From IMG/VR virus record IMGVR_UViG_3300044941_000346: a DNA stretch of 11,485 nt, one strand, 5' to 3'. Below, piece after piece: positions 5,924 through 11,485 of the stretch (positions within the stretch are counted from its first letter, which is position 1; every line of letters starts with the position of its first letter). The notes beneath the pieces were generated by a model. It searched no databases. It had not been told where the DNA came from and saw only the letters and a list, made by a program, of their open reading frames with translations. Source of the DNA: a virus. The position numbers and the translations under genes were made by a program.

Positions 5924-7736
5924 CTTCACGCATCAACCACGCCTCAAGCTCTGTCACCTCGCCAAGCTCCACCTCGGGCGCTGGCTGCGCCACATGCCAC
6001 GTCCTGCCGCGCACTACCCACGCCGTCCTCAGCCCCACACACCGCGCCCCCAGCAGATCGTGCACCGGCGTATCACCGACCATCACCGCCGCGCGCGGAT
6101 CTTCCGCGCAGCCCGTCGCCGACAGCGCGGCCTCGAAGATCGCCGCGTCTGGTTTTGTAGCGCCGATCTCGTCTGAGATAAAGATCGCATCAGGATCAAA
6201 ATGTCGCAGGAGGTCAGCCCGCGCCAGCTTGTCGCGCTGGCTCGCGCTGCCACCGTTGCTCAACAGCGCCAACTTGTAACGTTTGCTCAATCGCTCAAGC
6301 ATCGCTTGAATCGCAGGCTCTGGCACAAGCTCCGCCGCGATGCGGCGCGGTAGCTCGGCCCACACGGCCCGCCACTCGCCCGCCTCCCTGCCGAGCAGCC
6401 CACACAGCGCCTCACACAACACTCGCCGATCCCCATGCCCATGCGCGTCCAGCGCAAACACCCGCGCCAGCGCCTCGTCATCACAGCCCGTCCAGCGCCG
6501 CACCGCCGCGCAGAACGCCGCGTCGCGGTCGATCAACGTGTTGTCGAGATCAAACAGCACCGCCCGTATCTTTGGCCACGCCTCCAGCCTGCCCCAGCCC
6601 GCAAAGCCCCGCACCTCCGCCGTATAGCTGTCCTCCCCACGATCATACACATTGGGCAGCAGATCCCCAAACGCATTGACCTCGATGATACGCGGCGCAT
6701 CCAGCGCATCCGCCGGGAACAACACGTCCGCCCCCAGATAATACGCGCCCGGAAACGCCTGCGCTGCCTGCCTACACAATACCTCAAGCGCGCTCCACCC
6801 CACATCTCCCACCAGCGCCCGCACCTGATCCAGCTCCCCCCGCGCGTTCCCCAGATGAAGGTTTGTCATGGGATGCTCTGAGGCCCGCACCACCACCTGA
6901 CGCGCCTCACCGCCGATCACCACCACCCGCAGATCAAAGTTTTTGTCCTGACCATCATGTCGGATCATCGCCTTTGATGACCACTTCTCCACCACCGCAC
7001 CCTCCGCCAATAAATAATTTAGCAGTAGCGCGATCTGTCGAATGTCGTGATAACGTCGCGGTCGAAGTGAATTGTAAATGGAGAACCTGCCGTCGCTGTC
7101 CTCCACCAGATGGGCCGTGGTGGTCAACATCGCGCGCGGGCCGCTGACGCGCAGAGCCGCAACGCCCGACGCAGACGAGCTGCCGCGCAGCTTCACAAAC
7201 ACCCGATCCCAGCCCGCCTCGTCCATCCGCGCCCGCAGCGCCTCCCACGATCCCACGCCCTCCAGCGATGGCATCCTCGGCACACCATGCGCGTCCAATC
7301 TGCGGTGCGTCGCCAGCTTGTCAAACATCACCGCGATCTCGTCCGGGCGGCTCATGATGCGCCCCGGCGCACCTTCAAGTATCACTTGAAGGTCGCGCAA
7401 GACCGCCTGCCAGCCCGCGCGCAGCTGCCCCGGCGCCAAAAGCCTGCCGTGCTCAAGCGGCGCACAGAGCGCCTCCTGCGCGGTAAGCGTCGGCTCGTCC
7501 AGCTCCTCCGCACCGCGCGCCAGCAGCCTGCGCGTCACGCGCGCATCCTCGCCCGGCGACTCCAGCCGCAGGATCGTGTCGTCGTCCAGCAGATCTGGCA
7601 GCACCACGCGCCCCTCCAACACGTCGAGCCACGCCACAAAGCGCGCCGCGCTGTGGCCGCTGCGCATCAGCGCGTCCTGCACGTACGCTGTGCGGCGATG
7701 CCCCGCGTTGCCCACCACCACCCACCGCCTCGTCAT
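5913..7736 (-). CDS. Fusion protein: N-terminal RimK/GshB-like ATP-grasp ligase (about nt 6573-7736) plus C-terminal HAD-IA-type phosphatase (about nt 5916-6572); the N-terminal part is possibly the STM4014-family equivalent
   Basis: ATP-grasp motifs: VFVKLRGSSSASGVAAL (K..GS..G.GV), FDLRVVVIGGE, HPMTNLHLGNARGE, RIIEVNAFGDL. HAD motifs: I AVLFDLDNTLID (DxDxT), II LALLSNG, III GATKPD, IV VMVGDTPVHDLLGA. The ATG at 7736-7734 (MTRRWVVVGNAG...) forms an ATGA overlap with the upstream TGA (7735-7733). The track start is GTG at 7745. Confidence 0.85.
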   Translation of the reverse strand: MTRRWVVVGNAGHRRTAYVQDALMRSGHSAARFVAWLDVLEGRVVLPDLLDDDTILRLESPGEDARVTRRLLARGAEELDEPTLTAQEALCAPLEHGRLLAPGQLRAGWQAVLRDLQVILEGAPGRIMSRPDEIAVMFDKLATHRRLDAHGVPRMPSLEGVGSWEALRARMDEAGWDRVFVKLRGSSSASGVAALRVSGPRAMLTTTAHLVEDSDGRFSIYNSLRPRRYHDIRQIALLLNYLLAEGAVVEKWSSKAMIRHDGQDKNFDLRVVVIGGEARQVVVRASEHPMTNLHLGNARGELDQVRALVGDVGWSALEVLCRQAAQAFPGAYYLGADVLFPADALDAPRIIEVNAFGDLLPNVYDRGEDSYTAEVRGFAGWGRLEAWPKIRAVLFDLDNTLIDRDAAFCAAVRRWTGCDDEALARVFALDAHGHGDRRVLCEALCGLLGREAGEWRAVWAELPRRIAAELVPEPAIQAMLERLSKRYKLALLSNGGSASQRDKLARADLLRHFDPDAIFISDEIGATKPDAAIFEAALSATGCAEDPRAAVMVGDTPVHDLLGARCVGLRTAWVVRGRTWHVAQPAPEVELGEVTELEAWLMREDER

Positions 7737-9001
7737 GCCATCCACCAGGGGTCATCCGGGTCGAGCGCCGCTGCGCACCAGCGCGCCCCCACCTCATCAA
7801 GCTCCGCGCGCACCGCCGCGCTGGCCGCAATCGCAGCCAGCGTCACCTCATTAAAGCCGTTCCCATTTAACACCACCCGCGCGCTCGGATGCAGCCGCGG
7901 CGACGTGATCAGCGCCAGCGCCCCCGCGTCCGTGAGCTGCGTCGCCGACAGATTTAGTAGGCGCAACTGCCCCACCCACGGCAGCGCCAGCAGCCGCTCT
8001 ACGGCTTGATCCGTCAACGGGTTGTCGCTCAGATCCAGCGCGGTCAGCCCCCAGCTGTGCCCTTCTGTGAGTGGCTCGAACAGCGTGTCCAGCGTCGCAT
8101 CGTCGATCCTGCACTCGCCCAGCTCCAGCGTCTTCAAGCGACCCAGCACCGCAGGCGCCTCGCGCAGCACATGCGCCCCTCCGTGCAAGAATAGATTGCC
8201 GCGCAGCGACAGGTGCCGCAGCGCCTCCCAGCCCGACAACGCGAAGATGTGCATACACGGCAGCCCGTGGTGCCCCTCACAGTGCTCCAGCCAGAGCGAC
8301 TCCAGCACGGGCGCCGCGTCCGCAACCTCGACCAGCGCGTCCAACCCCGCGCTGCCGCCCACGCCGAGCGGGTTGCGCGACAGATCCAGGTGCCGCAGCC
8401 CCCGCACCAGCGGTGCACGCGCCAGCCGCACCAGCGGCAGCGCCATCGGCTGCGCGTTATTGCTCGTTGCACGTGTCACGTTCGCCAGGCTCAACCGCTC
8501 AAGCGGCGGCTTATCTGGCTCATCTTGCAGCCAGGCGTCCAGCGCGCCCAACACATCATTGTCCGACAGGTCAAGCGCGCGGAGCCGGTTGTGCTCGGCC
8601 AGCCGCTCCATCAGCGGCCCCACCATATGCTCGTGCAGGCTCGTCCCAGCCAGATCGAGCTGCGTGATGTGCCCCAGCGCCGGATGCTCGATCAGGCGCT
8701 GCATCTTGTCCCGATCCGTCAGCTGCACATGCACTCGCAGCCGCCTGGCGAGCGCCAGCGCGGGCAGCTTGTCGCCCGATAGCACCCGCGCAATCCAGCG
8801 CCGAGGCGCCACCCGCCAGCTATCCTCCCAGCCGCGCAGCTGCGCCTCACAATACGGCAGCGCCTGCTCGGCCAACGATCCATCGTCTGGCCACCGCTCC
8901 AGGAGCGCGCACAGCGCCCCCCACGTCTGCGGCTCAGGCGCGCGCTGCAGTAGGCTGCGCAGCTCCCCGAACAACACCTCGCGCTCGCTCAAGGCTCCCA
9001 C
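7733..9001 (-). CDS. Leucine-rich-repeat protein (RNI/ribonuclease-inhibitor-type LRRs, ~10 repeats) with a shared ~85 aa N-terminal module; LRR paralogue P5
   Basis: LRR units include LRALDLSDNDV, LRHLDLSRNPLGVGG, LKTLELGECRIDDATLDTL, LTALDLSDNPLTDQAVERL and LRLLNLSATQLTDAGALAL. The N-terminal module FGELRSLLQRAPEPQTWGALCALL...ALPYCEAQLRGWEDSWRVAPRRWI is shared with 8989-9855 and with the decayed copies. The C-terminal tail is LDPDDPWWMA. The start is either GTG 9001 (13-nt overlap) or TTG 8992 (a TTGA overlap with the upstream stop). Confidence 0.8.
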   Translation of the reverse strand: MGALSEREVLFGELRSLLQRAPEPQTWGALCALLERWPDDGSLAEQALPYCEAQLRGWEDSWRVAPRRWIARVLSGDKLPALALARRLRVHVQLTDRDKMQRLIEHPALGHITQLDLAGTSLHEHMVGPLMERLAEHNRLRALDLSDNDVLGALDAWLQDEPDKPPLERLSLANVTRATSNNAQPMALPLVRLARAPLVRGLRHLDLSRNPLGVGGSAGLDALVEVADAAPVLESLWLEHCEGHHGLPCMHIFALSGWEALRHLSLRGNLFLHGGAHVLREAPAVLGRLKTLELGECRIDDATLDTLFEPLTEGHSWGLTALDLSDNPLTDQAVERLLALPWVGQLRLLNLSATQLTDAGALALITSPRLHPSARVVLNGNGFNEVTLAAIAASAAVRAELDEVGARWCAAALDPDDPWWMA

Positions 9002-10807: not shown

Positions 10808-11485
10808 ACCAGTAGTCATCGTCATCGTCGGCGCGGCGCTGCCCGCCGTTACGCACCGTCACGCCCGTCGCGCGGAGCTGGTCGATCAGCTCCTCATCGC
10901 CGATGAAGTTATTGGTGATATCAATCGACTTGAGCTTGCCGATCTTTGGATTCCTCGCTAGCGCACCGGCTCCTGTATTCGACATGATCCCCTTCGACAG
11001 ATCCAGCTCCTCCAGGAAGTCCAGCACAGGCGCATCAAACAGCGCCTCCGCCAGCTCGTCCGCCAGCTCGCTGTTCACCAGCCCCAGCCGCTTGAGCTTG
11101 GGGAACGGATACCGCATCTCCGGATACGCTGTCCCCACCAGCAGCGGCTTCACATCCTCCACCGTCACGTCCGCCCCGTACTCGCTGCTCCCCGTCCAGA
11201 TCTCCAGATGCTGCAGGTTCGGCAGCTTCGCGCTCACGATCTGGCGCACCGTGTGGCCGCTCACGCCGCCTGTCTCCACGATCAGCGTCTCCAGCGTCGG
11301 GTGGCTCAGGCCCGTGAACCCCAGCCCGTTGCCGCCGCGCGCCTTGAAGTGCTTGAGCTTGGGGAAGGCGTTGATCACCGCGCCCAGATCAAACTGCTCG
11401 ATCCACGACACCTCGCTCTCCTCATAGGAGATGTCGCCCACAAACAGCGCCTCCAAGGAGGTGAGCTTGGGCGCCGCCGCCCGCA
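10788..11485 (-). CDS. Leucine-rich-repeat protein P1, 5'-truncated by the window edge; resembles what I recall as the STM4015 family protein
   Basis: The frame stays open to nt 11485 (...RAAAPKLTSLEALFVGDISYEESEVSWI...); the track 'M' at 11456 is an internal TTG. LRR-like units include LKHFKARGGNGL, LETLIVETGGVSG, LQHLEIWTGSSEYG, LKRLGLVNSELADELAEAL, LEELDLSKGIMSNTGAGALA and LKSIDITNNFIGDEEL. The acidic/aromatic tail is RRADDDDDYWYVEVGE; the stop is TGA at 10790-10788. Confidence 0.8.
   Translation of the reverse strand, partial: RAAAPKLTSLEALFVGDISYEESEVSWIEQFDLGAVINAFPKLKHFKARGGNGLGFTGLSHPTLETLIVETGGVSGHTVRQIVSAKLPNLQHLEIWTGSSEYGADVTVEDVKPLLVGTAYPEMRYPFPKLKRLGLVNSELADELAEALFDAPVLDFLEELDLSKGIMSNTGAGALARNPKIGKLKSIDITNNFIGDEELIDQLRATGVTVRNGGQRRADDDDDYWYVEVGE

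Follow-up and report, generated by a model that had tools for sequence, protein, structure and literature searches.

A second leucine-rich repeat family with an undescribed N-terminal module in the LRR slot of an STM4011-4015 cassette

Several described groups of leucine-rich repeat (LRR) proteins resemble parts of a run of LRR genes, P1 to P5, carried by IMG/VR virus record IMGVR_UViG_3300044941_000346 (11,485 nucleotides, referred to here as the window). The nearest is the STM4015 family (NF038076), which supplies the LRR protein of the "Salmonella-type" STM4011-4015 cassette; a comparison of Salmonella serotypes (PMC2784778) lists STM4015 as one of 41 genes showing evidence of positive selection, on the Typhi branch. 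Ribonuclease (RNase) inhibitor, the LRR domains of NLRP/NOD proteins, Legionella LegL1 and Ralstonia RipG4 share the repeat type, the predicted solenoid fold and Pfam LRR_6 with the second LRR family described below. The layout of that family, a small helical N-terminal domain followed by LRRs, is likewise that of F-box-LRR proteins (FBXL proteins and the bacterial GALA/RipG effectors). TIGR02996-type domains, N-terminal "repeat-companion" domains of LRR and WD40 proteins in Gemmata and myxobacteria, offer a parallel in concept, namely a short conserved N-terminal domain in front of variable repeats, but their motif is different.

In the window, the array of P1 to P5 is the LRR end of an STM4011-4015 cassette, all of whose genes lie on the minus strand. 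Read 5' to 3' on that strand, the order is STM4015 (P1), P2, an AT-rich spacer, P3, P4, P5, STM4014 fused to a HAD phosphatase (STM4014-HAD), STM4013, STM4012, STM4011 and a gene resembling that of the major vault protein (MVP; Table 1). STM4011, STM4012, STM4013 and STM4014 match their NCBIfam models far above the curated cut-offs, and Pfam finds radical SAM, HemN_C, sulfatase/metalloenzyme, HAD and LRR matches among the window proteins. An earlier note, drawn from the sequence alone, had described five consecutive LRR genes or remnants as part of a Salmonella-type cassette. All five units are present on the minus strand where it placed them, and the cassette is confirmed by the NCBIfam assignments of STM4011 to STM4014 and by the match of P1 to STM4015.

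Judged by profile and pairwise comparison, the array mixes two LRR families, P1 representing STM4015 and P2 to P5 a family defined by an N-terminal module (N-module). P1, whose N-terminus lies beyond the window edge, has a member-like match to profile positions 69-290 of 290 in NF038076, scoring 228 bits against a curated cut-off of 275 with its N-terminus cut off by the window. An STM4015 hidden Markov model (HMM) built here matches it at E 7e-83, and its closest relative is the STM4015 of a Bradymonadales metagenome-assembled genome (L003; 51% identity). P5 reaches 44.5 bits against NF038076 (cut-off 275), through similarity of its RNase-inhibitor-type (RI-type) LRRs to profile positions 163-234, and P4 and the two open reading frame (ORF) pieces of P3 have no match to this profile. 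Direct comparison gives 26% identity between P1 and P5 over the LRR repeats (E 1.5e-5) and no significant similarity between P1 and P3 or P1 and P4. A derivation of the N-module from a diverged STM4015 N-terminus was rejected on a profile-profile comparison (hhalign) with 120 STM4015 proteins, which gave a probability of 0.4%. On these comparisons, and contrary to the earlier proposal, P1 is not a paralogue of P2 to P5 in a strict sense. Unlike the STM4015 family, P2 to P5 carry the N-module, lack the R-Y-x-x-V-x-E tail and fall far below the 275-bit cut-off. The C-terminal layout once thought common to P1, P4 and P5 is weak, consisting of acidic or aromatic ends, and a variant of the STM4015 tail occurs in P1 alone. 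Identities among P3 to P5 are 31% for P4/P5 (E 1e-23), 28% for P3/P4 and 27% for P3/P5, a range in which synonymous sites are saturated; by this measure the three are old paralogues.

The N-module spans about 82 residues in P2 to P5, as traced by three-frame translation and a module HMM (82 positions) made from family members (independent E-values, iE, in Table 1; in P2 the match covers the first 24 positions only, iE 4e-5). That P2 to P5 share such a module had been recognized before, and the consensus given then agrees with that of the family, FGELRSLL..PS...W..LC.LL...LPY....L..WPD.LRVAP..W. The module is not private to this array, as first assumed: an exhaustive HMMER scan of 1.84 billion representatives (50% identity clusters) detects it in 1076 clusters at E<=1e-3 and in 243 at E<=1e-10. 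Word-indexed searches were insufficient here, the P5 module returning no match and an alignment of 100 module sequences a single protein. The module is usually N-terminal: 141 of the 150 best representatives have its start among their first 40 residues. Among 100 family members, Pfam LRR_6 is present in 69 and WD40 in one; 79 match the STM4015 profile weakly, in the checked case of P5 via the LRRs. The C-terminal tails vary across the family. The N-module is therefore an undescribed but common domain that occurs mostly with RI-type LRRs and, with more than 1000 clusters at 50% identity and no entry in Pfam or NCBIfam, it could be curated as a new one.

A known, widely distributed domain would have undercut the reading of the earlier note. 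No Pfam or NCBIfam model covers the module in the 100 members, and the module consensus and the modules of P4 and P5 have no significant match in either library even at E<=10 and no match among PDB sequences. Three candidates were rejected individually: an F-box (PF00646/PF12937) is absent from the Pfam matches of the 100 members and of the module at E<=10; neither TIGR02996 nor any other NCBIfam model matches the module consensus, P4 or P5 at E<=10; and a DUF982 match, found in P5 only and below the cut-off (E 0.0015), was treated as chance. AlphaFold2 (AF2), given the 100-sequence alignment, models the module alone as five short helices with a predicted local distance difference test score (pLDDT) of 96. 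Secondary structure and the predicted template modelling score (pTM) of the full-length model below suggest that the module may form an N-terminal cap or extension of the LRR solenoid. It is internal in a 1172-aa protein with HEAT repeats and LRRs (L087, 2283-5798), and a weaker match (iE 1e-5) precedes a helix-hairpin-helix domain in another protein (L089, 9776-10696), so it is not strictly tied to the N-terminal position or to LRRs. It was not found in viral contigs (scan) or in plasmids (tblastn).

P4 and P5 are intact genes. P5 is 100% identical to P0002 and P4 nearly identical to P0001, both from JGI and Logan gene calls. The full-length AF2 model of P0001 (pLDDT 93.6, pTM 0.90) places the first LRR strand at residues 93-97, directly after the module helices. 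A Foldseek search with this model retrieves RNase inhibitor and NLRP LRRs at E ~1e-7 to 1e-6 with a query-normalized TM score of ~0.5; FBXL17, FBXL2 and RipG4 are matched via the LRR part. No signal peptide is evident by eye at the N-terminus of either protein. Reading frames overlap consecutively at P3/P4, P4/P5 and P5/STM4014, the start of P4 overlapping the stop of P3, and P5 overlapping both the stop of P4 and the start of STM4014. P5 ends in DPDDPWWMA, a tail common to its orthologues as DPxDPWW[MLI]A. In the LRR half of P4 (8989-9540), GC content at third codon positions (GC3) is 0.625, compared with 0.85 in its own module and 0.71-0.86 in the other window genes; relaxed constraint, or recombination or a foreign origin of the segment, could be the cause.

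P2 and P3 are decayed copies, so that the tandem array contains intact and decayed members as previously described: P4 and P5 are intact, P3 is frameshifted and P2 is a fragment. In P2, similarity to the N-module is confined to about 24 residues at the module's start (FGELRSALEQPSSAEAWKAL; window 10783..10655) and ends after about 25 codons. Short DNA repeats of 60-79% identity connect the module-coding segments of the array, and one repeat family (D1) links 10747-10794 in P2 to the module starts of P5 and P4. Reading P3 from its module through the next helix into the LRRs takes one frame after another, and tblastn with family members locates the changes near 10280, 10210 and 10140; the related protein P0010 is in frame across the first of these lesions. 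The P3 product would end in EEPYDDDL. A separately assembled Logan contig (L001, SRR35364710) is 100% identical over 4548 nt, P3 included, which rules out an error in a single assembly as the source of the lesions. Around the spacer, a stretch of about 200 nt (10493-10700) has a GC content of 0.45, compared with 0.60-0.69 in the neighbouring genes, and may be an internal promoter of a non-sigma-70 type or a scar left by a deletion or insertion. Searches of the array gave no Rfam family, no sigma-70 promoter and no convincing terminator.

Related lineages conserve the placement of P4 and P5. Both of the closest STM4014 homologues, which come from short metagenomic contigs, are likewise HAD fusions (L090, 65% identity; L091, 63%). 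In L090, a P5 orthologue (47% identity) ends overlapping the STM4014 start, and in L091 the same overlap is made by a P5 orthologue that is 56% identical over the available C-terminus; both keep a DPxDPWW[LI]A end. The gene preceding the P5 orthologue in L090 ends exactly as does P0005, a P4-like module protein. The order P4-like, P5-like, STM4014-HAD is thus kept in L090, and L091 shows a P5-like gene directly upstream of STM4014. As this order persists in lineages whose proteins differ by 35-50%, the duplication giving rise to P4 and P5 is old, and insertion of the pair as passengers is disfavoured. P5 orthologues diverge faster (47-49% identity) than STM4014-HAD (63-65%). In P5 and P4 orthologue pairs, the module and first LRR are about 65-69% identical, and the central LRRs roughly 25-40% as read from the alignments by eye.

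The slot occupied by P2 to P5 is variable in other genomes. STM4014 homologues number more than 3000 among the matches listed and occur in Salmonella-type genomes, cyanobacteria, actinomycetes, planctomycetes and myxobacteria. From GTDB species representatives, 80 cassettes were collected via an STM4014 alignment, with 10-kb flanks where the contig allowed; they span cyanobacteria, Chloroflexota, Planctomycetota, Actinomycetota, Bacteroidota, Myxococcota and others. The genes usually run STM4015-STM4014-(HAD)-STM4013-STM4012-STM4011. An STM4015-type ORF ends no more than 200 nt upstream of STM4014 in 67 of the 80 loci, and this adjacency is kept in most of the 10 loci that have STM4011 to STM4013 on the opposite strand. 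In the window, STM4015 does not adjoin STM4014; the 3 kb from the P1 stop (10788) to the STM4014 start (7745) are taken up by P2 to P5, and P5 is the gene next to STM4014. Single STM4015-type copies occur in 51 loci, two in 12, three in seven, four in four, five in four and none in two. Constant copy number, which would have counted against the earlier note, is therefore not what is seen, 27 of the 80 loci being multi-copy with two to five copies. For 22 of the 71 copies in these multi-copy loci, the closest relative lies in the same locus (83% identity in L029, 77% in L081, 71% in L008 and L031), the STM4015 paralogues of Nostocales are old and positionally conserved, and L057 and L010 contain split or partial ones. 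Expansion of the LRR slot with some decay is a general trait of the cassette. For a cassette so widespread, the copy-number-variable LRR slot, a second LRR family within that slot and a near-invariant STM4015 tail beside an ATP-grasp ligase all provide handles on function.

On balance, P4 and P5 are probably accessory cytoplasmic LRR binding proteins that are co-expressed with the cassette enzymes and combine a constant cap with variable central repeats, a reading drawn from sequence and position. In the lineage of the window, copies of the N-module family would have been recruited into the operon between STM4015 and STM4014, at the position where many other genomes have additional STM4015 copies. 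The recruited copies would have duplicated long ago, and two of them (P2 and P3) would since have decayed. The overlapping stop and start codons suggest that P4 and P5 are co-transcribed and translationally coupled with the enzymes, to which they would contribute as protein-binding subunits. The conserved N-module and C-terminal end may act as a constant scaffold or docking part, while the poorly conserved central LRRs would determine partner specificity. P4 and P5 would act alongside STM4015 and not as its replacement. Several observations weigh against this proposal. In the 80 other cassettes, the N-module occurs within 10 kb only once, in L003, where the module protein lies 2.5 kb upstream of STM4015 and beyond a sulfatase gene on the opposite strand. 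Four other N-module contexts are unrelated and have no cassette genes nearby; a metagenome scan with a narrowed alignment gave four loci. The literature retrieved by the cassette names describes no function for STM4011-4015, and that retrieved for Bradymonadales and LRR contains nothing functional.

The C-terminus of STM4015 points to another possible role for LRR proteins in this cassette. Across 120 copies from the 80 other cassettes (L002-L081), the tail R-[YF]-x-x-V-x-E-COOH, which follows an acidic run, is near-invariant: the terminal E is found in 119 copies, Y or F at -5 in 119, R at -6 in 115 and V at -2 in 94. In multi-copy loci, all paralogues but one keep it. P1 has a variant of this tail (10788-10830), ending in DDDDDYWYVEVGE, with Y at -5, V at -2 and the terminal E but W in place of R at -6; the STM4015 of L003 has Y at -6 instead of R. 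P3, P4 and P5 lack the tail and end in DDDL, ERWEP and PWWMA, respectively. Nostocales encode a 410-aa STM4015 variant whose additional N-terminal part, about 250 aa long, is without a Pfam match (L015, 7461-8690, with equivalents in L018, L022, L025 and L032), and an additional STM4015 copy lies between STM4012 and STM4011 in L013-L025; all of these keep the ending DRYYSVWE.

RimK ligates Glu onto a protein C-terminus, and the cofactors pyrroloquinoline quinone (PQQ) and mycofactocin are made from Glu/Tyr or Val-Tyr in precursor tails. The near-invariant tail, together with the adjacency of STM4015 to the RimK-like ATP-grasp STM4014, suggests that the tail is bound or modified, possibly with STM4015 as a substrate of this neighbouring enzyme. 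It is conceivable, if rather doubtful, that STM4015-type proteins serve in this way and are not sensors. They would then be protein substrates whose tails are modified by the RimK-like ATP-grasp and radical SAM enzymes in the manner of ribosomally synthesized and post-translationally modified peptides (RiPPs) or pearlins, tandem copies would be multiple precursors, and P4 and P5 would be accessory binders or unrelated to this step. The conservation of the tail (terminal E in 119 of 120) even among multi-copy paralogues, the STM4015-STM4014 adjacency that survives in most split-strand loci, and the tail chemistry of RimK, PQQ and mycofactocin are all in keeping with this idea. If it were true, multi-copy STM4015 arrays would resemble multi-precursor RiPP clusters. 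However, a precursor in the form of an LRR protein of about 300 aa would be unprecedented, and P3, P4 and P5 lack the tail, which leaves the array in question unexplained. An extended version is distinctly improbable: STM4011-4015 would be a protein-tail-modifying pathway in which STM4015 is a scaffold or precursor, its acidic-R-Y-x-x-V-x-E C-terminus being extended or cross-linked by the RimK-like ATP-grasp and two radical SAM enzymes, with tandem LRR copies as alternative precursors or adaptors and a second LRR family (P4/P5, P5 with its own DPxDPWW tail) wired into the operon.

The earlier note had inferred expansion with turnover. Birth-and-death in the sense of Nei describes what is seen, namely tandem paralogues, maintained and pseudogenised members and copy number that varies between lineages; the LRR slot does vary (one to five copies across the 80 loci), but rapid turnover is not supported, P4 and P5 being old with their order conserved. 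Birth-and-death thus holds descriptively, with slow turnover. An immune-type role, in which the LRR genes encode target-sensing specificity subunits of a defence-like system and undergo rapid birth-and-death under diversifying selection, is unlikely. It would account for the range of copy numbers, the lineage-specific duplicates at 71-83% identity (L029, L081, L008), the split copies (L057, L010), the decay of P2 and P3, and the lower conservation of the central LRRs relative to the ends; moreover, the combination of radical SAM, nucleotidase-like HAD and ATP-grasp may loosely recall nucleotide-modifying defence systems, though the PADLOC matches are weak. Nevertheless, P4 and P5 are an old pair (31% identity) with synteny retained between lineages, a pure sensor would not be expected to have the near-invariant STM4015 tail, the scan of viral contigs did not detect the module, and the LRR proteins have no match to any PADLOC model. 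Orthologous STM4015 proteins are also about as conserved as STM4014, with identities of 97% and 91%, respectively, in L054/L065, 86% and 88% in L063/L074, 85% and 84% in L070/L071, and 86% and 80% in L077/L078. For this reason there is no sign of accelerated STM4015 evolution, and diversifying selection is unproven.

Least credible is that the module-LRR genes are passengers of a lineage-expanded family that came to lie between STM4015 and STM4014 accidentally and are functionally unconnected to the cassette: the unrelated neighbourhoods of the family, its absence from 79 of the 80 other cassettes, the decay of P2 and P3 and the deviant GC3 of the P4 LRR half (0.625, compared with 0.71-0.86) are compatible with it, but the genes share one strand and overlapping reading frames, the overlap of the P5 orthologue with the STM4014 start recurs in three lineages whose proteins differ by 35-50%, and L090 also has a P4-like gene ahead of that orthologue.

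Table 1. Features of the window, listed along the minus strand from its 5' end
Feature	Position	Strand	Evidence
P1, canonical STM4015-family LRR protein, C-terminal 231 codons	10788..11485	-	NF038076, 228 bits
P2, 61-codon ORF, remnant	10640..10825	-	module HMM positions 2-25, iE 4.2e-5
AT-rich non-coding spacer between P2 and P3	10493..10654	-	GC composition
P3, pseudogene of N-module LRR family; module 10501..10247	9852..10573	-	module iE 7e-20; three-frame translation; tblastn
P4, intact, 288 aa; module 9807..9559, then ~7 RI-type LRRs	8989..9855	-	module iE 1e-25; Pfam LRR_6/LRR_1
P5, intact, 422 aa from 9001 (419 aa from JGI-called start 8992); module 8980..8732, then RI-type LRRs	7733..9001	-	module iE 1e-30
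STM4014 ATP-grasp + HAD (YjjG-like) phosphatase fusion	5913..7745	-	NF038074 1.9e-99; HAD_2 2e-17
STM4013/SEN3800 family hydrolase (alkaline-phosphatase/sulfatase superfamily)	5096..5929	-	NF038075 4.8e-122
STM4012, HemN-like radical SAM protein	3702..5228	-	NF006067 1.2e-157
STM4011, radical SAM protein	2830..3756	-	NF038073 9.9e-116
MVP-like gene, 826 aa	131..2611	-	MVP_shoulder 1.3e-27; Vault_3 4.5e-8; weak SPFH

The remaining genes of the window add a few observations. A search of PADLOC-DB v2 gave no match for P1, P4, P5, STM4013, STM4014 or the MVP-like protein. STM4012 weakly matches the candidate model PDC-M51A (E 4.7e-9, 33.5 bits) and STM4011 very weakly matches pVip (E 0.003), which is insufficient for calling the cassette a defence system. 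The MVP-like gene, a homologue of the eukaryotic major vault protein, sits 219 nt downstream of STM4011, and its product has no counterpart across the 80 other cassette loci (phmmer). The STM4014-HAD fusion is also found in the closest STM4014 homologues (P0166, P0167, P0189), and a HAD-like match adjoins STM4014 or STM4013 in about 15 other loci, with L003, L008, L016, L028 and L029 among the loci that have HAD.

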